Shown here in pieces: positions 1,770-41,266 of a DNA stretch of 64,000 nucleotides. A program made the translations under genes and the position numbers. Numbering within the stretch: position 1 is the stretch's first letter; each line of letters opens with the position of its first letter. The notes below the pieces were generated by a model. The model worked only from the letters and a program-made list of their open reading frames with translations, was not told the origin of the DNA and did no database searches. Origin of the DNA: a virus (Duplodnaviria > Heunggongvirae > Uroviricota > Caudoviricetes); the IMG/VR virus record IMGVR_UViG_2579778660_000001, one strand, 5' to 3'.

Positions 1770-2807
1770 TTACCAGAGCTTTGCGGCGCGCTGCGTTTGG
1801 GGGAATGTGTATCCGTAACGTTCTTCGATTGCTTTGCCGTATTTTTTACGCGCTTCATTCAGTTTGATGCCGGTCAGGTCGTCTCCAGAGGCCATCATTA
1901 CGTCTAACAATTCCAGATCCATTTTATCCAGCCTTGCCATTGCTTCACGCGATGTACGAATCTTACGTTCAATGATATGGCGAATAGCCGGATCGGCATC
2001 CTCCAGCATCTTAGCTGATTTCTGCTTAAGGTTTTCGTTGCGGATATCGATGTTCCTTAAGATATACGACTTCGCAACGTAGCTTGGCTGATGTTTTTCC
2101 AGGTCACGAACACGATATAAGCTAAAGTCGCCGAGAAGGCTGCAAGGCACCGATTCGACGCCAGAATAAATTGTAATGCTACGGCGTTCACCAACATTAT
2201 TGACAACGGGGATCGTTGTCTTCGGTAGTTTTGCGAAAACGAATGCGCCATGTGCGCCAACTCTAAAGCGAGAAAGGGCATTGCTGCCTTCGATGTTTGT
2301 TGTCAGCACAACATCTGTATATGCCTCTTTACGCGCCCGGTAGACCTCGCCTTCAGGCTCAGCTTCAAAGAAGCGCTGTTCTTCTTCAAGAGCACCTACG
2401 ATTTGAGAAAAAACCCTATTTTTCAGGCTTTTCTTTATGATTTTGTCGTATTTTTTGAGCAATTGTTCACGTGTAAATGTACGTGTTGTTGTAGCGCTTT
2501 GCACAACAACATGCGTGCTTTGATTGGTGTCCTCAATGATGAATGGGATCGGAGAATATACAGACTCAACAATGTTAGACGCTTTGCCGTCAGCATTACG
2601 GCACAAGTCAACAAAGGCTTTCCATTCTGCGAGGCACTTTTCAGCTTCTTCTAGTACATTTTGGTCGTGTGTTAGTGCAACGTGGCGGAATTCCTCGCCA
2701 GCATAACTGGTATCATGGAAAACAGAGTTTGCGACCACCAGCTCTTTCCACCGTTCAGCGGTTTGCAGGAACCGTTTGTACTCTTTCTCGATCGACTTCT
2801 TACTCAT
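1770..2807 (-). CDS. hypothetical protein (345 aa), operator motif directly upstream; possible immunity/regulatory function
   Basis: Long ORF convergent with terL; TTTTCTAACAT operator copy 20 bp upstream of start; no recognisable catalytic motif. Confidence 0.6.
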   Translation of the reverse strand: MSKKSIEKEYKRFLQTAERWKELVVANSVFHDTSYAGEEFRHVALTHDQNVLEEAEKCLAEWKAFVDLCRNADGKASNIVESVYSPIPFIIEDTNQSTHVVVQSATTTRTFTREQLLKKYDKIIKKSLKNRVFSQIVGALEEEQRFFEAEPEGEVYRARKEAYTDVVLTTNIEGSNALSRFRVGAHGAFVFAKLPKTTIPVVNNVGERRSITIYSGVESVPCSLLGDFSLYRVRDLEKHQPSYVAKSYILRNIDIRNENLKQKSAKMLEDADPAIRHIIERKIRTSREAMARLDKMDLELLDVMMASGDDLTGIKLNEARKKYGKAIEERYGYTFPQTQRAAKLW

Positions 2808-2821
2808 TATTCCTACTCGAT

Positions 2822-2836
2822 TTAGTTTTCTAACAT
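2822..2836. promoter_or_regulatory. operator-like motif TTAGTTTTCTAACAT (copy 1)
   Basis: Same 15-mer recurs at 20805-20819; core TTTTCTAACAT recurs at 7 loci. Confidence 0.55.
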
Positions 2837-3204
2837 AAAATCCCTATGACAAATCTATGTCGAATAACAGAGTGAGTAAAGGATCGAACTATGATTTTTT
2901 TGTCATCAACTTTAGAAAACCAACCGTTGAAACCACACTTCGCAAATTAAAGACCATGAAGGCAACGTGTTACTGTCCATCATCAATCTATGATGGATTA
3001 CAAAAAAAATCGGCATTTTATAACTTTAAATAATGGGGATTATTTAAAGTTAGGCTATAATCATGTGTAGATGAACAGTATTGACATCACTGAAAATACG
3101 TGCCTCGAATCAAAGGCTTGTATTTTGAAAATTAACTTATAGCTACCCTGTCATTTTTATATTTTTCGCGTAGCGTCATATGTATATAGAGGCGAAATAG
3201 TTTC

Positions 3205-4237: not shown

Positions 4238-4250
4238 AATTTCTAACACA
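4238..4250. promoter_or_regulatory. operator-like motif variant AAATTTCTAACAC (copy 2)
   Basis: Between cre stop and the 4307 operon start; 9/11 match to core motif. Confidence 0.4.
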
Positions 4251-4306
4251 TCTTTTTAGATTAACGCCTTTGATGTAAAGTACCCTCGCCTATTTAGGAG
4301 GGTGCT

Positions 4307-7895: not shown

Positions 7896-8285
7896 TTAAA
7901 TCACCGGACAATCGTCAAATTCCCCACTTCGGACATCATTGATGACATGAGTGATCACACCAAAAACAGCATTACTCCCCGTGCATCCATCGTCATCCAC
8001 TGGTAACGCCTCTTTCCTCCCGGTGCTTAAATCCTCCAGGTGCTGGCGCGGATACTTCCTGTATCTCTTTATGCGATATTCACCCTCCATAGCGCACACA
8101 AGCAGAGAACCATCAACCGGAGTAAGCGAGGAATCAACCACCAGCAAAGCACCCTGCAATATTCCCTCACGGTGATGGCTATCAGCTGCCCGCATGAAGT
8201 AGGTTGCTGATGGATGCCTGATTAGTTGCTGATCAAGAGAAATTCGGCTTTCAACATAATCCGCCGCAGGAGAAGGGAAGCCCAT
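7896..8285 (-). CDS. humD: HumD (UmuD'-like S24 peptidase-fold protein)
   Basis: 129 aa; LexA/UmuD C-terminal-domain-like sequence; LexA box immediately upstream. Confidence 0.75.
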   Translation of the reverse strand: MGFPSPAADYVESRISLDQQLIRHPSATYFMRAADSHHREGILQGALLVVDSSLTPVDGSLLVCAMEGEYRIKRYRKYPRQHLEDLSTGRKEALPVDDDGCTGSNAVFGVITHVINDVRSGEFDDCPVI

Positions 8286-8383: not shown

Positions 8384-8635
8384 TTATTTTTTGGCTATAT
8401 CTTCTTTCTGATACACCGGATCGCTCCCTTTTGGCAACTGGAGGCTTAACTGCCGGTAGTGCCGTAGCCGTTCCATGAAATAGGCGCGCAGGTTTTCCGG
8501 TTGCTCACGGGCCACCTGCTCTGCAATCACAGGTATATTCAGCCGTTCTTTGTAAGCAACGCCGCTGGCGGCAAGGTCTACGTTCACCTTGTCTCGCTCT
8601 TCCTGGCTTTTAGCTGCTATATTTCGATCTGACAC
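8384..8635 (-). CDS. hot: Hot protein, homologue of DNA Pol III theta subunit (HolE-like)
   Basis: 83 aa; [45 protein letters not shown] resembles E. coli HolE as recalled. Confidence 0.7.
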
Positions 8636-15212: not shown

Positions 15213-15253
15213 AATGTATACCGACTCTGTTTTGTTCCGAGCGGTAAAATAAT

Positions 15254-15285
15254 ATGTTAGAAAACTAAAATCAACGTTCTAACGT
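15254..15285. promoter_or_regulatory. operator-like motifs (copy 3: ATGTTAGAAAA plus variant CGTTCTAACGT)
   Basis: Perfect reverse-complement of core motif at 15254-15264; second half-site 15275-15285. Confidence 0.5.
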
Positions 15286-20116: not shown

Positions 20117-20157
20117 GACCTCCTGATATAGCGTCTGAAAAAAGTATCTTCATTTTG

Positions 20158-20187
20158 TGTTAGAAAATCAATTTTGATTTTCTAACA
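20158..20187. promoter_or_regulatory. 30-bp perfect palindromic operator between divergent operons
   Basis: TGTTAGAAAATCAATTTTGATTTTCTAACA, two inverted copies of core motif. Confidence 0.65.
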
Positions 20188-20190
20188 TGT

Positions 20191-20808
20191 TTGATCAACC
20201 ATAGCGGCTATGTAGACAAACCGGGTATTTCTATGAAGCAAAGCTATTGGGAGAAACAGACACAAAAAGCCCTGCAAAAACTGGCTGATCCGAAATGGCG
20301 GGAGGAACAAAGGGCAAAGCGTCTTCAGCAAGCTCAACGCCAGCAGCAGCGTGCGCGAGAAAAAGCCGCATCGCCTGAATATCGGCAAAAGAAAATTGAA
20401 AAAGCGAAGCAATATGAACAGCGAAGAAAAGAGAAGGCCGCTTCTGCTCCTGTCAAAAAAACTCGCGCGTCACGCGGCCTGAAAGGCAGAACACTCACAG
20501 CAGATGAGCGCCGGATACAAACTGCCATCGGTGCTCTCCCCTGCATTGCCTGCCATATGCACGGACAGCATAGCCCTGTGGTATCCCTGCACCACATCTT
20601 CGGAAGAACAGCAGAGAACGCGCATAAATACGTCCTCCCTTTGTGTAAATGGCACCATCAACACGCAGCGCCAGCAGAGATCCGCGAGCAATACCCCTGG
20701 TTGGTTCCTGTTCATGCTGATGGAAAAATAGGCGGTAAAGCAGATTTCAGGCGGCACAATGCTGATGAAATGACGTTGTATCAGATGGCGATTGAATTGA
20801 CGAATTAG
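20191..20808 (+). CDS. ref: Ref-like HNH endonuclease (recombination enhancement function)
   Basis: Basic low-complexity N-terminus then Cys/His HNH core (CIACHMHGQHSP...LCKWHHQH); likely ATG at 20233. Confidence 0.65.
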   Translation: MINHSGYVDKPGISMKQSYWEKQTQKALQKLADPKWREEQRAKRLQQAQRQQQRAREKAASPEYRQKKIEKAKQYEQRRKEKAASAPVKKTRASRGLKGRTLTADERRIQTAIGALPCIACHMHGQHSPVVSLHHIFGRTAENAHKYVLPLCKWHHQHAAPAEIREQYPWLVPVHADGKIGGKADFRRHNADEMTLYQMAIELTN

Positions 20809-20819
20809 TTTTCTAACAT
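20805..20819. promoter_or_regulatory. operator-like motif TTAGTTTTCTAACAT (copy 5)
   Basis: Identical 15-mer to copy 1; overlaps ref stop codon. Confidence 0.55.
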
Positions 20820-28971: not shown

Positions 28972-29952
28972 GTGGCCCAGGAGTTACAACAATATTTTCT
29001 ACAGTCAGTGCTCATTAACGATAACAAAGTGCCACGAGACTGGATTTTTACCGCAGTATATGTAGAAAAAACCAGCCTCAAAGCCCCTTTGCTAAAACTG
29101 GAAATTCATGACGCTACCGGCACCGTAATTGATGACTGGAAAGCCAAATACGGTGCATCGCTGGTGGCTGAAATGGGCGATCCAAACGGTAATGCAGGCA
29201 CTTTTAAAACAGATTTCTTTGTTACGTCTGCAATGCTGGCTGGTGATGTTGTTACCGTTATTGCTGTCAGTGAAGACGTGCGCAGGTTTAAGATCCCCTC
29301 CCCGCGCACAAATTTACATACCAACAAAACACCAGACGCTATATTCAAGGCATATTCCGGCAAACTTAAAATTACCAGCAGCGTGCTAAAACGCGCAGTT
29401 ACATATCATCTGAATGCTGGTGACAAACCGTCAAAAATGCTTTCGGAGATAGCGCGAGACAAAGGTGCATTGTGTTGGGTATGTCGGGGGGAATTTAACT
29501 TTTACACCCTGGCTGATCTGATGAAGCAAACGCCATCATTTACCTACGAGGGGAATAACCCTAAAGCAGAATACACTTTGTCCAAAATGCGCCTACTCCA
29601 ACAGGAACATGCGACAACAGCAAAGAATCAATATCGTTTTGTTGGGTATTCCATGACCGATGGCTACGTCGAATATGGCGATAGCTCACTCCCAGTGCGT
29701 TATATATCCGACTCTGATATGGAAACTCTTCGCAATATGCAGCTGTCTCTCGTCCCCAAAATGGATATAGAAGTCGCAGGCAATCCTGATATAAAACCGG
29801 GGATGGTAATAGAGATTATCGTATACCGCTATGACCAGGAAAACCGCATTGATGAATCAATGCCCCGTAAGCTGATAGTAAAAAATGTTGCGCACTTTGA
29901 GGACCGCGTAGGCTACACAACACGAATGATATTGGGAGTGCCTAACAAATGA
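28972..29952 (+). CDS. virion/baseplate-module protein (326 aa)
   Basis: GTG start after GGGGTGA. Confidence 0.5.
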   Translation: MAQELQQYFLQSVLINDNKVPRDWIFTAVYVEKTSLKAPLLKLEIHDATGTVIDDWKAKYGASLVAEMGDPNGNAGTFKTDFFVTSAMLAGDVVTVIAVSEDVRRFKIPSPRTNLHTNKTPDAIFKAYSGKLKITSSVLKRAVTYHLNAGDKPSKMLSEIARDKGALCWVCRGEFNFYTLADLMKQTPSFTYEGNNPKAEYTLSKMRLLQQEHATTAKNQYRFVGYSMTDGYVEYGDSSLPVRYISDSDMETLRNMQLSLVPKMDIEVAGNPDIKPGMVIEIIVYRYDQENRIDESMPRKLIVKNVAHFEDRVGYTTRMILGVPNK

Positions 29953-30602
29953 AGCGTAGAGCGCAAATTGTTGGAACTGTGCACCCGGCAGGGCTTATGC
30001 GTGCTCAAGTCCGTGTTTTACCTGACTGGAATGGCGTTCCTGATGACGATCTACCCTGGGCGGAATACCAGTTACCCATCGGGAACGCTTTTGTACCTAC
30101 AGTCAAAGGTGACCTGGTCTGGGTAGAGTTTCCTTATTTAGATGTTAACGGTCGAATAGACACCAGACGCCCAATGATAGTTGGTGCCGCTCAGGATGCG
30201 CCAGGCGGAGTTCCAAACGTCGCGCCGGAGGCGTCAGGCAATGGTAGCGGCTGGACGCCGCCTGAAGTAGACGGAGCGCCTCCCCGCCCGCAATTTTCGG
30301 CGACAAAAGATTTCGTTATTCACCGCAATAATGTGCTAGAAGTGCGAACGGCTGGCGGTGGATATGAAATAGCCAATACGGCAGCAGGTTCAAGGATTGG
30401 CATGAATGAGTCCGGGCAGATATATATCATTGGTCCGGCTGATGTAATCGTGAATGCAGGAGGGAGTGTTAACGTCAAATCAGCCAACAACATCAATGTT
30501 AATGGGGAAAATATTGCTGTCACCGCTAACGGGGACATAGCTTTCAAGGCAGGGGGAACCTTTCAGGCCACTGCTGGCAACTTCGATTTCAAGAAAGGAT
30601 AG
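29949..30602 (+). CDS. baseplate central spike protein (gpV-like)
   Basis: 217 aa; Gly/Asn-rich beta-repeat C-terminus (VIVNAGGSVNVKSANNINVNGENIAVTANGDIAFKAGG). Confidence 0.6.
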   Translation: MKRRAQIVGTVHPAGLMRAQVRVLPDWNGVPDDDLPWAEYQLPIGNAFVPTVKGDLVWVEFPYLDVNGRIDTRRPMIVGAAQDAPGGVPNVAPEASGNGSGWTPPEVDGAPPRPQFSATKDFVIHRNNVLEVRTAGGGYEIANTAAGSRIGMNESGQIYIIGPADVIVNAGGSVNVKSANNINVNGENIAVTANGDIAFKAGGTFQATAGNFDFKKG

Positions 30603-30616
30603 AAAATGCACCCATT

Positions 30617-30649
30617 TGTGTTAGATAATTAACGCGTATTTTCTAACAT
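30617..30649. promoter_or_regulatory. operator-like motif pair (copy 6)
   Basis: TGTGTTAGATAA (variant, inverted) and TATTTTCTAACAT directly upstream of rdgC. Confidence 0.5.
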
Positions 30650-30661
30650 AAATGGTGAGAA

Positions 30662-31567
30662 ATGAGATCAGTCGCTTTCAAAAATATCTTCATCTATCGT
30701 CTTTCACGCGAAGTTAACTGGGATACCGCAGAAGTAAATGCAGCCCTTAGCAAGTTTGTGTTTACCCCATGCGGTTCTCAGGATATGGCTAAAGCTGGTT
30801 GGACCCCAATTCTTGGCGACAACCTCACCCATGAATACCAGGGTTTTCTTCTGATGCAGCATAAACGAGAGGAAAAAATCCTGCCTTCTCAAGTACTCAA
30901 AGAAGAGTTACAGAAAAAAATCCTGAAACTTGAAGAAGAGCAAGACAGAAAGCTGAAGAAGACCGAAAAAGATTCGCTGAAGGATGAAGTGCTTCACTCT
31001 CTTCTTCCTCGCGCTTTCACGAGAAAATCAGTCGCTAAAATCCTGATAGACCGAAGCAATCATCTGGTTTTTGTCGAGGCCAGCAGTGCTAAAAAAGCAG
31101 AGGATCAGCTGGCTTTGTTACGGAAATCGCTTGGCAGCTTGCCCGTTGTCCCCTTCTCTCCGAAAGACCCATTAGAACTGACCATCACTGGCTGGATTAA
31201 AGATGGCTTCCCGAACGGTTTCCGTGCTGGTGAGGAAGCGACTTTAAAAGCATTGCTTGATGATGGCGGCGCGGTCCGCTGCAAAAAAGTGGACCTGCTA
31301 TCCGACGAGATCATGAGTCATATAGAAGCTGGTAAGGTTGCAACCACAGTTGCGGTTAACTGGCAAGACCGTGCATTTTTCAGACTGAATGACGATATGA
31401 GTATCAAGGCTTTGTCGTTCAGCGACGAATTGTACGACCAAAACGACGATATTGATCGAGAGGATGTAGCGCAACGATTTGACGCTGACTTTATCCTGTT
31501 TACTGCTGAATTATCAGCCATGTTCACTTCGCTAGTGGAGGCCGTTGGTGGTGAAGCAGAACGTTAA
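30662..31567 (+). CDS. rdgC: RdgC-family recombination-associated protein (divergent from host copy)
   Basis: 301 aa; [66 protein letters not shown]. Confidence 0.75.
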
Positions 31568-33839
31568 CCTTAGATATGGTTCTGTTTGCAGTGGAATTGA
31601 AGCAGCGAGCATTGCCTGGGAACCGTTGGGTATGCGTCCGGCGTGGTTTGCTGAAATCGAGCCTTTTCCATCTGCCGTTCTTGCGCACCGCTGGCCCCAT
31701 GTCGCCAACCTTGGCGATATGACAAAACTTGCCAAAAAAGTCCTGGCTGGGGAAATCGAATCCCCTGATGTGCTCGTCGGGGGAACACCTTGTCAGGCAT
31801 TCAGTATCGCGGGATTACGTGGTGGGCTTGATGATGAGCGTGGCGCGCTAACTTTAAAGTATGTGGAGCTTGCAAATGCAATTGACGACAAACGGGCTGA
31901 GTCATTTCTCAAACCAGCCGTTATCGTCTGGGAAAATGTCCCAGGAGTCTTGTCATCGGCAGATAACGCCTTCGGATGTTTCCTTGCCGGATTGGCTGGA
32001 GAAGATGCGCCATTCGAACCAGGTGCTCGACCTGAATCACGAAAAAGTAACGCGTTCTGGCGGTGGGATGTCAAAACCAGTTGCCATGCTCCAAAGTGGC
32101 CGCAGTGTGGTTGTATTTATGGACCGCAGCGAAAAGTGGCCTGGAGAATCCTTGATGCCCAATACTTCGGAGTGGCACAACGACGCCGACGCGTGTTTGT
32201 TGTCGCAAGTGCTCGAACAGACCTCGATCCCGCAACGATACTTTTTGAGTTCGAAGGCGTGCGCCGGAATATTGCGCCGAGCCGAAAAAAGAAGGAAATC
32301 GCTTCCGCCATTATTGCAAATGGCGCTGCAATCAGTGGCGAAAGTCTAAATCCATGCCTACACGCTGACATGCCCCCCGGTATGAAATCGACGAAAGCCG
32401 TAAACGCTTTCAGGATGGCGGCATTTGGGGAATATATTGACGATGAAACCGCATCGACAGTAAAGGCAAGAGACTTTAAAGATGCCACTGACCTTGCCGT
32501 TTTTAGCAGCACAGGAGCAGGTTTTTGGTCAGAGGGGCATGGTACATTGCGGGCGCGTGAGCAAGAAAGCCATGAGCATCTTGTTACATTAGCTTTTCCT
32601 GAGCATATGAGCGGTACACAACATGCTGCAACTAAGAATACTTCACCATCTCTAATGGCTCAAAATCCAACAGCCGTTTGCTATGAAGCAAGAAACGCAA
32701 AAGTAGCTGTTCGCCGTCTTACCCCTGTCGAATGTGAAAGGCTGCAAGGTTTTCCTGATGGGCATACGTTGATCCCTACGGAAAAGCGTAAAACAATTTC
32801 CTCAGATGAACTGGCATACCTTCGCAATCACTATCCAGATTTAAGCGAAGAAGAGGCCGCGATGCTCGCTGCTGACGGGCCGCGTTACAAAGCGATTGGC
32901 AACAGCATGGCAGTTCCTGTTATGCAATGGATTGGGTGTTGCATTCTTGCGACTGTGGAAGCTAAACAGCCAAAAACAATAAATACCATTACCTACACAA
33001 GAATACTCCGGACTCCGGATGAATATGAGCGTCCGATCTTCAAATGGGTAGGAGGTAAATTCTCAGAGTTACCTACAGTGCTTGAGCATCTACCACACGG
33101 CAAGCGGTTAATAGAACCATTCGTTGGTGGCGGTTCCGTATTTACGAATGCAGGATTTCGCCACAACCTGCTTAATGATATTAACGGTGACCTGATTAAC
33201 TTCTATCAGACATTGCAGCGAGAAGGACATTCGCTCGTCACGCTGTCATATAGTTTTTTCCAAAATTACAACAACGCTGACGCTTACCTCGAAGTGCGTG
33301 AGGCATTTAACAGAGGAAAGTATGACCAGCTACATCATGCTGCCGCCTTTTTGTACCTTAATCGGCACTGTTTTAATGGCGTAACGCGGTACAACCAAAA
33401 TGGCGAGTTCAACGTGGGGTATGGCAAATACAAAGCGCCCTACTTCCCACATGCAGAGATGGAGGCATTTTTGGCTGATGACGTACTCAAAAACACGTCC
33501 TTTGTATCAGGTGACTTTGCTGGCGTCATCGAGGCGGCTGGTGAAGGCGATGTGATTTTTTGCGATCCGCCGTATGAACCGCTGCCGGATACAGAAGGGT
33601 TTACCAGTTATTCAGGAAATAGCTTCCGTTTCGACGAACAGAAACGGCTGGTATCTCTATTGGTGGAAGCCCACCAGCGCGGCGCTAAGGTAGTGATTAC
33701 AAATAGTGGTGCGCCAAACATCCGTGAACTATATGAAGGAAACGGGTTTAAAGTACATCATATGGCAGCCAGACGGTCGGTTTCCTGCAAGGCGTCAACA
33801 CGTGTAGTTGCTAACGATATAATTGCAATAATGAAGTAA
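31548..33839 (+). CDS. dmt: bifunctional DNA methyltransferase (N-terminal C5-cytosine MTase + C-terminal Dam-like N6-adenine MTase), P1 Dmt-like
   Basis: [12 protein letters not shown] and ENV in N-half; Dam-like [14 protein letters not shown] and DPPY in C-half; GTG start after GGAGG. Confidence 0.85.
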
Positions 33840-33842
33840 AAA

Positions 33843-33872
33843 ACGCCGCAGTAGCGGCGTTTACTTTTTTAT
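33843..33872. terminator. bidirectional intrinsic terminator (dmt / glnS)
   Basis: ACGCCGCagtaGCGGCGT flanked by A-run and T-run. Confidence 0.6.
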
Positions 33873-33887
33873 GTGGCGAAATACCTA

Positions 33888-35549
33888 TTAACCTAACTTC
33901 GCCCAGGTATCACGCAGCCCAACGGTGCGGTTAAATACCGGTTTTTCCGCCGTAGAATGGCGGCTGTCGAGGCAGAAATAACCTTCACGCTCAAACTGGA
34001 ATGCTTTACCAGCTACCGCTTCTTTCAGCGACGGTTCAGCAAAGCCCTGTTTGATCACCAGCGATTCCGGGTTAATCACCGACAGAAAATCATCCGCAGC
34101 ACCTGGGTTCGGTACACTGAACAGACGGTCGTACAGGCGAATTTCAACCGGCAGCGCATGGGCCGCGCTTACCCAGTGGATAACGCCTTTCACTTTACGA
34201 CCATCTGCCGGATCTTTGCTTAAAGTATCGGCATCGTAGGTACAGAAGATGGTGGTGATATTGCCTTCGGCATCTTTCTCCACGCGTTCAGCCTTAATGA
34301 CGTAAGCATTACGCAGACGCACTTCTTTACCCAGCACCAGACGTTTGTACTGCTTGTTAGCTTCTTCGCGGAAATCGGCGCGGTCGATCCAAATCTCACC
34401 GCTAAACGGCACCTGACGGCTACCCATTTCCGGTTTGTTCGGATGGTTCGGCATGGTGACCATTTCGCCTTCGCCCTGGTAGTTTTCGATAACCAGTTTC
34501 ACCGGATCGATAACCGCCATTGCGCGCGGCGCATTTTCGTTGAGATCTTCACGGATGCAGGATTCCAGCGACGCCATCTCAATGGTGTTGTCCTGCTTGG
34601 TCACGCCGATGCGTTTGCAGAACTCACGAATAGAAGCCGCAGTGTAACCACGACGACGCAGACCGGAAATGGTCGGCATACGCGGGTCATCCCAGCCTTC
34701 AACGTGCTTGTCGGTCACCAGCAGGTTCAGCTTACGCTTGGACATCACAGTGTATTCCAGATTCAGGCGCGAGAATTCGTACTGGCGCGGGTGAACAGGA
34801 ATGGTGATGTTGTCCAGCACCCAGTCGTACAGGCGACGGTTGTCCTGGAACTCAAGCGTACACAGAGAGTGCGTAATACCTTCCAGCGCATCGCTGATGC
34901 AGTGGGTGAAGTCGTACATCGGGTAGATGCACCACTTGTTGCCAGTCTGGTGGTGTTCAGCAAACTTAATGCGGTACAGCACCGGATCGCGCATCACGAT
35001 AAACGGCGACGCCATGTCGATTTTCGCACGCAGGCAGGCTTTACCTTCTTCAAAACCACCGGCACGCATTTTTTCGAACAGCGCCAGGTTCTCTTCAACG
35101 CTGCGATCGCGGTACGGGCTGTTTTTACCCGGCTGCGTCAGGGTGCCGCGGTATTCGCGGATCTGTTCCGGCGTCAGTTCGTCAACATACGCCAGGCCTT
35201 TGTTGATCAGTTCAACAGCATAGGCGTGGAGCTGATCAAAATAATCGGAGGAGTAACGGACGTTACCAGACCAGTGAAAACCTAACCATTCAACGTCGTT
35301 TTTAATCGACTCGACGTACTCGATATCTTCTTTTACCGGGTTAGTGTCGTCGAAACGCAGGTTGCACTGGCCTTTATAGTCCTGGGCGATCCCGAAGTTC
35401 AGGCAGATAGATTTCGCATGACCAATATGCAGATAGCCATTCGGTTCCGGCGGGAAACGGGTATGTACTGTGGTGTGCTTACCACTTGCCAGATCTTCAT
35501 CGATGATCTGACGAATAAAGTTAGTCGGGCGGGCTTCTGCCTCACTCAT
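33888..35549 (-). CDS. glnS: glutaminyl-tRNA synthetase, host-type
   Basis: 553 aa; essentially E. coli GlnS as recalled ([20 protein letters not shown]..., HIGH, VMSKR); higher GC than flanks. Confidence 0.9.
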
Positions 35550-35708
35550 TGTGGATTCCTCAAAGCGTAAAAAACGTATAACAGCGTATGATCTTATAAG
35601 CCGAATAGGCTGACAACCACTAGTTGATTAGAAATTGCTTTCTATCGTTATTTCAATAATGAGCTTTTTCATGAAGCCCACTTTTGCGCATAAGTAAATT
35701 AATGACAA

Positions 35709-35784
35709 ATGGTACACAATTGGAACCAAAAAGGATGTAAAGGTGCACCAAATTAGTGGTGTATTGGTGCATCTTTGGTTCAAG
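35709..35784. repeat. cluster of short GGTGCACC/TGGAACCA-type repeats downstream of parG
   Basis: TGGTACAC, TTGGAACCA, GGTGCACCA, TGGTGTATTGGTGCATC, TGGTTCAAG within 76 bp. Confidence 0.4.
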
Positions 35785-35817
35785 ATTTTTTAAGTTCTAA
35801 AACCACCCTGAAAGACT

Positions 35818-36105
35818 TTATTTTGCTTCCTCAGACTCCGCTAACATGAGGATAGCATGGCGGATCATATTCAATTTGCTGCGATTATGCTTTTTACTTA
35901 ACGCATCAAGTACCTGGTACTCGTATTCATTGAAACCAACACGAATAGATTTAAAATCACGTGGAGCGTCCTTATCGAGCACTTTGTTGTCTTCTGGTTG
36001 CTCACCCGGCACCAAATCAGCCTTACTTGCAAAATCCTCAATTCGGCGTTCAAGATCGGGGTCTTTTACTTCGGGGGCTTTTACCGATTTACGAGGTTTA
36101 ATCAC
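35818..36105 (-). CDS. ParG-like partition DNA-binding protein
   Basis: 95 aa; directly downstream of and overlapping parA; C-terminal ribbon-helix-helix assumed from size and position. Confidence 0.55.
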   Translation of the reverse strand: MIKPRKSVKAPEVKDPDLERRIEDFASKADLVPGEQPEDNKVLDKDAPRDFKSIRVGFNEYEYQVLDALSKKHNRSKLNMIRHAILMLAESEEAK

Positions 36106-36739
36106 TTAATAACTCCTTAACCAACATCTGGATTTCACCTTTAGCTTTCCCGTTGTCCATCTCAACAACGCCCTTCCCTTCAGCCATGCAATCGCGGTAA
36201 ACCTTACGATCACGAATGATGGTTTTCAGCAACTTCAGTTGCGGATATTCAGCCAGGTACTCTTTGGCCTCATTGGTTTCATTCACAACCGGATTGGATG
36301 GGGCCATTGTTAAGACTGCGAACGCCTTAATGCTAGGATTAGGCATCAGGTCCAAAGCCTCTTCAAACACTTCAACAAAGTGTGCCAGCGTGTCTAAATC
36401 TGGTTGAGATGGTCTGAATGGGACCAACACAATATCTGCAGCGGTTATGCCTGTACGCATCTCTTTGCTATCGCGCCCGGCTGTATCAACAACTACAAAT
36501 TCATAACGCTTATCCAGATCGAGAAGTGTTTCTCGAATATTACCAAACTTCTGGACACAATGAATTACAGGAGAAACCTCTGCCGTGTTACGGTCAGCGG
36601 CCCAGCGGGCAGCTGTTCCTTGCTTGTCTGCATCTAGTAACACTACATCCTTATTTTCGCGGGCAAGCTCCGCACAGATGTTTACGCTTGTGGTTGATTT
36701 TCCACAGCCACCTTTTTGGCTGACTACCAATATAATCAT
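36098..36739 (-). CDS. parA: ParA/ParF-type small partition ATPase
   Basis: 213 aa; deviant Walker A KGGCGKS. Confidence 0.85.
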   Translation of the reverse strand: MIILVVSQKGGCGKSTTSVNICAELARENKDVVLLDADKQGTAARWAADRNTAEVSPVIHCVQKFGNIRETLLDLDKRYEFVVVDTAGRDSKEMRTGITAADIVLVPFRPSQPDLDTLAHFVEVFEEALDLMPNPSIKAFAVLTMAPSNPVVNETNEAKEYLAEYPQLKLLKTIIRDRKVYRDCMAEGKGVVEMDNGKAKGEIQMLVKELLSD

Positions 36740-41240: not shown

Positions 41241-41253
41241 AACTCTAATGTTT

Positions 41254-41266
41254 TGTGTTAGAAAAT
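41254..41266. promoter_or_regulatory. operator-like motif TGTGTTAGAAAAT (copy 7)
   Basis: Shares TTTTGTGTTAGAAAAT with left arm of the 20158 palindrome. Confidence 0.5.

Follow-up and report, generated by a model that had tools for sequence, protein, structure and literature searches.

A probable early, repressor-controlled hrdC-dmt operon in a D6-like plasmid prophage of the P1 family

The window, a stretch of 64,000 nucleotides from an IMG/VR virus record (IMGVR_UViG_2579778660_000001), contains two overlapping genes, hrdC and dmt, that probably constitute an early, repressor-controlled operon of a D6-like, P1-family plasmid prophage. An earlier note on this DNA had described an operator-controlled rdgC-dmt pair at positions 30617-33839; every element was found at these coordinates (Table 1), which start at the second base of the left operator half-site TTGTGTTAGATAAT. 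The gene identities, domains, coupling, terminator and operator motif of this region are read directly from the sequence. By its sequence, the element is a D6-like plasmid prophage from the P1 family of phage-plasmids of E. coli; it is 92.5% identical to phage D6 and 97-98% to E. coli plasmids of ~90 kb. At least 80% of the region 30600-33870 is present in at least 21 public plasmids at 97-99% identity, with rdgC and a Dam methylase as the annotated genes. The hrdC-dmt arrangement is a rediscovery, being already annotated in P1 (uhr-hrdC-dmt) and D6 (orf65-64-63); the operon, its repressor control, Ref, HumD and Hot all belong to the textbook picture of P1, and annotations of them exist for D6 and for many plasmids. 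The minor novelties are the bivalent D6-type operator and a mosaic P1-type C5 module fused to a D6-type Dam domain.

Table 1. Features of the hrdC-dmt region and related loci in the window
Feature	Positions	Strand	Details
hrdC, RdgC-family DNA-binding protein, 301 aa	30662-31567	+	PF04381; preceded by GGTGAG at 30654-30659
dmt, two-domain DNA methyltransferase, 762 aa	31551-33839	+	PF00145 and PF02086; GTG start at 31551, GTG at 31548 also possible
P1-type C5-methylase module	31575-32935	+	95.7% nucleotide identity to P1 dmt; mosaic segment in a D6-like backbone
Dam domain (D12 class, GATC-type), D6-type	33009-33839	+	99.2% nucleotide identity to D6 orf63
Bidirectional intrinsic terminator	33841-33862		Between dmt (+) and glnS (-); 9-bp stem, 6 G-C pairs
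Operator half-site a, TTGTGTTAGATAAT	30616-30629	+	Exact match to the D6-type C1 operator motif
Operator half-site b, TTATGTTAGAAAAT	30638-30651	-	Inverted relative to a; between the -10 and the hrdC ribosome-binding site
Promoter-like site	30600-30629	+	-35 TAGAAA (30600-30605), 18-nt spacer, -10 GATAAT (30624-30629); consensus scan 9/12
Second operator pair	20155-20190		Directly upstream of ref; same geometry, perfect 14-nt arms
c1-type prophage repressor	1770-2807	-	345 aa; syntenic with D6 orf1 'prophage repressor'; presumed operator-binding protein
ref, RecA-dependent HNH nuclease	about 20230-20808	+	PF16786, 124.4 bits (cut-off 26.9)
humD, UmuD'-like protein, 129 aa	7896-8285	-	93% identical to D6 orf108; Peptidase_S24, 36.1 bits
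hot, Pol III theta-subunit homologue, 83 aa, intact	8384-8635	-	phrog_1105 'DNA polymerase III theta subunit', E = 8.7e-42

The first 17-20 nt of dmt lie within the 3' end of hrdC, where a GGAGG sequence (31537-31541) stands 6-9 nt before the alternative GTG start codons of dmt. This arrangement shows translational coupling of dmt to hrdC, in keeping with the coupled pair of the earlier note, and the domains PF00145 and PF02086 bear out its description of Dmt as bifunctional. Motifs I, IV (PCQ), VI (ENV), VIII (QRR) and X (GNS) were sought in the C5 domain (PF00145, 127.3 bits), whose N-terminus matches M.HhaI, and SGIE, GGTPCQ, ENV, QRRRR and GNS are all present; at the position of this P1-type module, D6 contains an unrelated 226-aa gene. 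The Dam domain (PF02086, 188.7 bits; E = 1.5e-58 against E. coli Dam) conserves the DPPY motif and the GATC-contacting residues K9, N120, R124 and Y138 of E. coli Dam, whereas Y119, L122 and P134 of the E. coli enzyme are replaced by F, V and G, respectively, the F and G changes being found also in P1 Dmt. In D6, as in P1, pacA holds the densest GATC cluster; the D6 cluster, with 5 sites in 200 bp, is modest and falls outside the window. The terminator downstream of dmt has T-runs on both strands and accounts for a 27-bit Leu_leader match in the Rfam scan of 29500-36500, which gave nothing above threshold. On the upstream side, no + strand terminator was found between gene 5 and hrdC, and the 59-nt gap between these genes has no ORF and hence no uhr.

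The motif TTRTGTTAGAWAAT, allowing up to two mismatches, occurs at 10 sites in the window versus 2.2 expected, a count that none of 100 shuffles reached. For the 11-mer core, eight of the 10 sites fall within the 14.5% of the window outside the greedy ORF map (binomial P ~7e-6); the motif is enriched and almost wholly intergenic. In the window it precedes c1, ref and hrdC; in D6, it precedes these three genes and also repL. Single sites precede c1 (2825-2838, just upstream of the repressor gene) and other genes, and pairs occur only at ref and hrdC-dmt. The P1-type operator ATTGCTCTAATAAATTT has no match within three mismatches in the whole window, and a P1 operator reading was dropped, the D6-type motif occupying its place at the promoter. 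By eye, 10 out of 17 positions are common to the D6-type motif and the P1 operator consensus, and we identify the motif as a D6-type relative of the P1 C1 operator. The D6-type C1 regulon is defined by the operator TTRTGTTAGAAAAT, which is enriched, intergenic and found at the promoters of c1, ref, repL and hrdC. Recognition of the TTRTGTTAGAAAAT motif by a C1-type repressor is suggested by the positions of the sites and by the distant homology of the window repressor to P1 C1 (20% identity over 242 aa, pairwise E = 5e-8). In a third lineage, L017, in which HrdC is 61% identical, an inverted TGTTAGATT / AATCTAAACA pair likewise precedes hrdC. The D6 GenBank record has no annotated operators, and a full-text literature search for the motif, which did not extend to the D6 genome paper, returned unrelated primers only.

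The earlier note also assigned Ref, HumD and Hot, together with the hrdC-dmt pair, to a wider gene set directed at host RecA and Pol III. All three genes are present in the window (Ref by tblastn at 20236-20805, 92.6% identical to D6 Ref); however, judged by the distribution of operator sites, this gene set is not one regulon, because hot and humD, some 22 kb from hrdC-dmt, have no operator motif in their vicinity, and operator pairs are confined to ref and hrdC-dmt. In P1, hot and humD served as examples of genes outside C1 control, and dmt and ref rise upon C1 inactivation as measured by RT-qPCR (PMC4713147). The order of hrdC followed by an overlapping dmt is kept in P1, D6-type and L017 elements despite only 55-61% identity among their HrdC proteins, which argues against the view that the linkage has no functional meaning, the two being neighbouring early genes under one promoter and the 'gene set' a collection of independent accessory genes. 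This view is quite possible, even if we lean against it: it is favored by the remoteness of hot and humD and their lack of operator motifs, by the free exchange among relatives of the methylase module adjoining hrdC, and by the non-essentiality of all these genes in P1 (PMC10695390). It is also in line with the history of hrdC itself, which appears to be a recombinant allele because its dS against D6 is 0.82 versus 0.25 and 0.04 for the flanks. A scan of rdgC relatives in IMG/VR detected methylase linkage only at P1/D6-type loci; most other relatives (56-59%) have no methylase directly downstream, and many of them are taken as host rdgC because they are located at the ends of predicted prophage regions.

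HrdC matches the Pfam RdgC family (PF04381) with 340.9 bits against a cut-off of 25, over profile positions 3-298 of 298, and aligns over the full length with the E. coli RdgC structures 2OWL (E = 3.6e-110) and 2OWY (E = 1.5e-62). It is 60.2% identical to E. coli RdgC, 55.6% to P1 HrdC and 88% to D6 orf65; the family assignment made in the earlier note stands, but its word 'divergent' is an overstatement. The earlier note had named the lack of an RdgC-family fold as its refutation; the 60% full-length identity to the solved E. coli ring structure settles this point in favour of an RdgC fold. A single-sequence AlphaFold2 model (pLDDT 37) was uninformative. Nine out of 10 experimentally tested RdgC residues are retained, with conservation of all four fingertip residues R97, K98, K100 and K101, which E. 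coli RdgC needs for loading on circular DNA (PMC2965237), and, at the dimer interface, of gate residues R118 and F120 and horseshoe residues E218, H222 and K227. Moreover, a 24-residue finger segment is identical in the window HrdC, D6, P1 and E. coli. At the position of Q212, the window HrdC (V210) and D6 have Val, whereas P1 HrdC keeps the Gln; in E. coli RdgC, the Q212A substitution abolishes in vivo function but not dsDNA binding (PMC2965237). The dN/dS of hrdC is 0.06-0.11.

According to the summary in PMC11077077, strand exchange and ATP hydrolysis by RecA and the cleavage of LexA are inhibited by E. coli RdgC; by analogy with this biochemistry, HrdC may modulate RecA. The 60% identity and the 100% conserved finger segment argue for unchanged DNA-clamp biochemistry, P1 HrdC retains Q212, and no RexB-like partner adjoins hrdC; we therefore consider it unlikely that HrdC, instead of inhibiting RecA, works like RexA in exclusion or in the lysis-lysogeny switch, or acts as a dominant-negative partner poisoning the RdgC rings of the host, although several observations would suit such a role. 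For instance, lambda RexA has the RdgC fold (PMC11077077), and RexA-like action has been proposed for RdgC homologues of lambdoid phages (PMC11077077; PMC12315714). The conserved interface residues F120, E218 and K227 make heterodimers with host RdgC conceivable, the residue needed in vivo in E. coli, Q212, is Val, and HrdC is predicted to be co-derepressed with Ref, which needs RecA filaments; the dominant-negative variant would raise RecA activity, in line with the recombination enhancement by Ref. It is quite unlikely, in our estimate, that HrdC and Ref, co-released by the same bivalent operator, act as a phage control pair for host RecA filaments. Such a pair would have Ref cutting DNA inside the filaments and HrdC clamping duplex DNA, thereby confining filament spread, or alternatively HrdC poisoning host RdgC via mixed dimers; the conserved hrdC-methylase coupling would then reflect a functional link, such as the shielding or marking of phage DNA.

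The half-sites in front of hrdC are part of an inverted repeat with 18-nt arms (30612-30629 / 30638-30655) that are 89% complementary, and they are offset by 22 bp, just as are the half-sites at 20155/20177 before ref. Half-site a is invariant in D6 and in 11 D6-like IMG/VR loci, where the adjoining spacer varies, and the core of half-site b is invariant among relatives. The -10 element falls within the left half-site, and the operator pair claimed in the earlier note is recovered as two inverted, predicted D6-type sites over a promoter. The same consensus scan gave three promoter-like matches in the region versus 4.4 expected, which is not above chance, and nothing at the ref operator pair; we regard the sigma-70-like promoter overlapped by the operator pair as a weak prediction. 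It is very unlikely that the inverted repeat acts mainly as an RNA hairpin in read-through transcripts of the tail operon, serving in transcription attenuation, mRNA stabilisation or masking of the hrdC ribosome-binding site, with repressor binding secondary or absent: the RNA of the 59-nt intergenic gap has a folding energy of -19.4 kcal/mol (z = -5.1 versus shuffles), the last two bases of the 3' arm of the repeat are the GG of the ribosome-binding site GGTGAG, the spacer variants ACGCGT and GCATGC are palindromes in their own right, and transcripts from gene 5 would meet no terminator, but every palindromic operator folds well as RNA, the hairpin has no following U-run, conservation tracks the 11-14-nt half-site cores rather than general base-pairing, and the unpaired motif copies before c1, repL and other genes cannot form a hairpin.

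For the preferred reading, an early hrdC-dmt operon under repressor control, we infer repressor binding, timing of expression and a RecA-directed role of HrdC as follows. In the lysogen, the C1-type repressor would occupy both inverted half-sites, cover the -10 element and the transcription-start region, with a predicted start site at about 30636-30638, and keep the operon off. By analogy with P1, C1 inactivation upon induction or infection would turn on transcription of both the operon and ref, whose bivalent operator is the same. Transcripts running on from the tail-gene operon upstream probably contribute late hrdC-dmt expression, since no terminator separates gene 5 from hrdC. Like E. coli RdgC, on whose biochemistry this reading is modelled, HrdC would dimerise into a ring that holds duplex DNA in a non-specific clamp, and this clamp would limit the growth of RecA filaments, strand exchange and the cleavage of LexA on phage or host DNA undergoing replication. 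The Dam domain of Dmt is predicted to methylate GATC, and the C5 domain may add protective cytosine methylation; in P1, GATC methylation is required for pac cleavage. Several points count against this model. The promoter match is weak, with none found at the ref pair; Val replaces Q212, a residue that E. coli RdgC needs in vivo; the window C1 is just 20% identical to P1 C1; and the inverted repeat would also give a stable RNA hairpin in read-through transcripts. In addition, P1 formed plaques without hrdC and dmt according to a CRISPRi screen (PMC10695390), and the note in the P1 record NC_005856 gives the C5 methylase activity only as 'perhaps' even for P1.

The locus is real but ordinary, and its value as a discovery is small. 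What it adds is an operator consensus that can be used for the D6 immunity type and that covers the bivalent sites at hrdC and ref, and evidence that the methylase module beside hrdC is an exchangeable cassette. Host RdgC is a known RecA antagonist, and its phage copy, hrdC, is under strong purifying selection; to our knowledge, no phage RdgC homologue has been characterised to date.

The P1 operon uhr-hrdC-dmt (C1 operator Op68/Odmt, promoter Pdmt; annotation of Lobocka et al. 2004, NC_005856) likewise consists of an RdgC-family gene followed by an overlapping C5 plus Dam methylase gene, with a C1-family operator over the promoter, as in the window. However, the P1 genes overlap by 4 nt instead of 17-20 nt, the P1 operon begins with uhr, which the window operon lacks, and it faces upfC, whereas the window operon lies downstream of baseplate gene 5 in the same orientation; furthermore, the window operator is bivalent and unlike the P1 operator in sequence, the identity between the two HrdC proteins is only 55.6%, and the window has a Dam domain of the D6 type. 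Phage D6 (orf65 for hrdC, orf64, and orf63 for dam; MF356679, Gilcrease and Casjens 2018) has the same backbone, gene 5-hrdC synteny, operator pair and Dam gene (99.2%), and also glnS downstream; however, it encodes a separate 226-aa methylase-like orf64 (phrog_757, no Pfam match) and a separate dam in place of one fused 762-aa protein, and its hrdC is a different allele (88% at the amino acid level, dS 0.82). E. coli RdgC (PDB 2OWL) is a full-length homologue of HrdC (60.2%) that has the finger, the gate and most horseshoe residues in common with it, whereas HrdC is phage-borne, under predicted prophage-repressor control, and carries Val in place of Q212. Finally, lambda RexA is likewise a phage protein with RdgC-like domains, and it binds DNA non-specifically (PMC11077077).

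The gene order in the record of phage D6 (MF356679) is that of the window in reverse, and on this basis the window is identified by sequence comparison as a D6-like plasmid prophage belonging to the P1 family. In megablast searches against phage records, D6 was the best match to 30000-34500 (92.5% identity over 68% of the query), and P1-type phages matched within the central 1.36 kb of this region only (~96%). A 24-kb stretch of the window aligns with ~90-kb Escherichia coli plasmids at 97-98% identity over 94-97% of its length, the hrdC-dmt genes of one IMG/VR contig are 100% identical to those of the window, and at least 80% of 30600-33870 is present in 21 PLSDB plasmids (97-99% identity), where the genes are annotated as 'rdgC: recombination-associated protein RdgC' and 'Dam family site-specific DNA-(adenine-N6)-methyltransferase'. 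An ARAGORN scan of the whole window (1-64000) gave no tRNA genes; D6 has three, in a genome part beyond this window.

Features of the hrdC-dmt operon, the wider gene set and the operator motif sites
Feature	Coordinates	Strand	Remarks
c1-type repressor gene	1770-2807	-	
Single operator site	2825-2838		just upstream of c1-type repressor gene
Single operator site	4238-4251		adjoins cre-type recombinase gene
humD	7896-8285	-	Peptidase_S24
hot	8384-8635	-	intact 83 aa, phrog_1105, Pol III theta homologue
Single operator site	15252-15265		upstream of pdcB-like gene
Second inverted operator pair	20155 and 20177	+ and -	directly upstream of ref; perfect 14-nt arms
ref	~20230-20808	+	PF16786
Single operator site	20808-20818		at 3' end of ref
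Promoter-like site	30600-30629		TAGAAA, 18-nt spacer, GATAAT; consensus scan, 9/12 matches
Operator half-site, left	30616-30629	+	copy of TTRTGTTAGAWAAT
Operator half-site, right	30638-30651	-	inverted copy of TTRTGTTAGAWAAT
hrdC	30662-31567	+	RdgC family
dmt	31551-33839	+	two-domain methyltransferase
Terminator	33841-33862		strong, bidirectional; closes hrdC-dmt operon against convergent glnS
glnS	33888-35549	-	glutaminyl-tRNA synthetase, full-length, 553 aa (PF00749, PF03950, PF20974)
Single operator site	41253-41266		upstream of orf52-like gene

The 59-nt gap between the end of baseplate gene 5 (30602) and the start of the 301-aa hrdC ORF (30662), AAAATGCACCCATTTGTGTTAGATAATTAACGCGTATTTTCTAACATAAATGGTGAGAA, contains two copies of TTRTGTTAGAWAAT that make an inverted repeat with 18-nt arms. 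The earlier note had placed an operator-controlled rdgC-dmt pair at 30617-33839; these limits correspond to the second base of the left half-site and the dmt stop codon, and at the sequence level the operator pair is a real feature. When up to two mismatches are allowed, the motif occurs 10 times in the window against 2.2 expected, a count attained in none of 100 shuffles. Of 10 sites that match the 11-mer core with one mismatch or none, 8 fall in the 14.5% of the window outside a greedy ORF map (P ~7e-6), and a ninth lies within the opening codons of a maximal ORF that has a shorter annotated counterpart in D6 (130 aa vs 144 aa). The pair at ref has the same 22-bp offset as that at hrdC, and the single sites together appear to mark out the set of genes under C1 control in this immunity type. 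D6 carries motif sites at equivalent positions and one more upstream of repL, with no operators annotated in its GenBank record.

The half-site cores before hrdC are invariant in D6 and eleven D6-like IMG/VR loci, while the outer flank and central spacer (AACGCGT, AATATGT, AGCATGC) vary. Two of the three variants of this spacer (30630-30637 and its equivalents in L008-L016) are palindromic (ACGCGT, GCATGC); ATATGT is not. Repressor geometry, an RNA hairpin or chance may lie behind this pattern. In a third P1-like lineage (L017), an inverted TGTTAGATT / AATCTAAACA pair is located between gene 5 and hrdC (L017 4958-5000), suggesting a related but distinct operator specificity. The P1-type C1 operator ATTGCTCTAATAAATTT has zero matches at up to three mismatches in the entire window, and by eye it has 10 of 17 positions in common with the D6-type motif. 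The repressor of the window is 20% identical to P1 C1 (pairwise E = 5e-8), which fits a related repressor of different specificity. The C1-type repressor of the element very probably binds at the operator pair, as predicted from these comparisons.

In the lysogen, C1 on both half-sites would cover the -10 and start region and keep the operon silent. The -10 GATAAT falls within the left half-site, whose sole deviation from the consensus motif (GAAAAT to GATAAT) makes for a better -10 and does not vary among relatives; the promoter prediction is weak, promoter-like matches in the region being not above chance. A less likely rival reading is that the palindrome forms an RNA hairpin in read-through transcripts. 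The predicted hairpin is stable (-19.4 kcal/mol, z = -5.1), and the terminator scan gave no plus-strand terminator between gene 5 and hrdC; therefore, transcription could continue from the tail operon into hrdC. Under repressor control, the reading preferred here, hrdC-dmt and ref would be released together upon induction, by inference from P1. Downstream, the bidirectional terminator is common to dmt and the convergent glutaminyl-tRNA synthetase gene, a known cargo of D6-like plasmid prophages (PMC6799933) that may serve host fitness or plasmid maintenance.

The operon had also been set within a wider RecA/replisome-directed gene set with Ref, HumD and Hot. This set is real, yet it is not a single regulon: among the three genes only ref has an operator pair, and the motif search of the window gave no site near hot or humD. 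In P1, inactivating C1 induces both dmt and ref, and humD and hot are used as examples of genes outside C1 control (PMC4713147). No ban or ssb homologues are annotated in D6-like elements, so Hot alone represents the replisome-directed part. The hot product in the D6 record has just 48 aa and diverges after residue 33, in comparison with the intact protein of the window; the D6 gene is probably frameshifted or truncated.

HrdC matches Pfam RdgC end to end (340.9 bits) and the solved RdgC structures of E. coli (E = 3.6e-110) and P. aeruginosa (E = 1.5e-62), with 60.2% identity to E. coli RdgC, 55.6% to P1 HrdC and 88% to D6 orf65. The identity to a protein of known crystal structure answers the doubt whether HrdC has an RdgC-family fold, and by the same measure the protein, which the earlier note had called divergent, is not notably divergent from its host counterpart. 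AlphaFold on the single sequence was uninformative (pLDDT 37). Among the ten RdgC residues tested by mutation by Briggs et al. (PMC2965237), HrdC conserves fingertip R97, K98, K100 and K101, gate R118 and F120, and horseshoe E218, H222 and K227; the Q212 position is Val in the window and D6, and Gln in P1. A 24-residue finger segment is identical in all four proteins compared (window, D6, P1, E. coli), and hrdC dN/dS of 0.06-0.11 against five D6-like alleles indicates strong purifying selection. E. coli RdgC, a ring dimer with non-specific DNA binding, lowers RecA strand exchange, ATPase and LexA cleavage (PMC11077077, PMC2965237); by inference from RdgC, HrdC would clamp duplex DNA and restrain RecA. 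Alternatively, its role could be RexA-like or dominant-negative: RexA-like action has been suggested instead for lambdoid-phage RdgC homologues (PMC12315714), and our literature search found no experimental work on any phage HrdC.

The long dmt ORF opens at TTG 31545, and GGAGG (31537-31541) precedes GTG 31548 and GTG 31551 by 6 and 9 nt, respectively; in D6, orf64 begins at the counterpart of position 31551. Because the hrdC stop codon (31565-31567) follows these GTG starts, the genes overlap by 17-20 nt, compared with 4 nt in P1, and translational coupling is probable here, as it is in P1. Dmt (762 aa) contains both PF00145 and PF02086, with C5 motifs GGTPCQ, ENV, QRRRR and GNS and the Dam motif DPPY. 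Its N-terminus matches M.HhaI, and the last 270 residues align with E. coli Dam (E = 1.5e-58), with K9, N120, R124 and Y138 aligned and conserved. Motif IV reads VLVWGTPCQ in the P1 reference and the canonical VLVGGTPC in the window, L011, L014, L016, L017 and phage RCS47; Gly-to-Trp beside the catalytic Cys could account for the 'perhaps' status of P1 Dmt C5 activity. The RCS47 Dmt (L087 1486-4773; 1095 aa) has ~340 residues inserted just past the PC-motif catalytic Cys (GGTPC|FTAGHMVLCKNGY...); the insertion resembles an intein placed within the active site of the methylase. Dmt would provide GATC methylation and protective C5 methylation. Cleavage at P1 pac requires GATC methylation, and the densest GATC cluster of D6 is in pacA.

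The operon is mosaic. Identity to D6 is 86.7% (nucleotide) in hrdC and 99.2% from 33009 on, whereas 31575-32935 is 95.7% identical to P1 dmt; in D6 the middle position holds an unrelated 226-aa gene (phrog_757 'DNA methyltransferase', without Pfam match), followed by a separate dam gene. Further C5 variants occur in the D6-like loci L011 and L014, and in relatives the place between hrdC and the Dam domain is taken by at least four alternative modules. At synonymous sites, divergence from D6 amounts to 0.82 for hrdC, 0.25 for gene 5 and 0.04 for the Dam portion. By these measures hrdC and the adjoining C5 module (30662-32935) are recombinant relative to D6, and the comparisons taken together indicate that the hrdC allele and the adjoining methylase module reassort among these elements. 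The hrdC-dmt linkage might be purely historical; L017, with HrdC 61% identical, retains the gene 5-hrdC-dmt order and a fused Dmt (895 aa).

The reported finding is accurate and its interpretation essentially right. We found no description in available records of the D6-type operator that is bivalent at hrdC and ref, nor of the fusion between a P1-type C5 module and a Dam domain of D6 type, although many public plasmids carry this fusion. The finding re-describes a feature already annotated in P1 and D6: in the P1 record, uhr-hrdC-dmt follows promoter Pdmt and the monovalent C1 operator Odmt (Op68), HrdC is listed as a hypothetical recombination protein of the RdgC family and Dmt is called bifunctional, and both hrdC and dmt were non-essential for P1 in a CRISPRi screen (PMC10695390).
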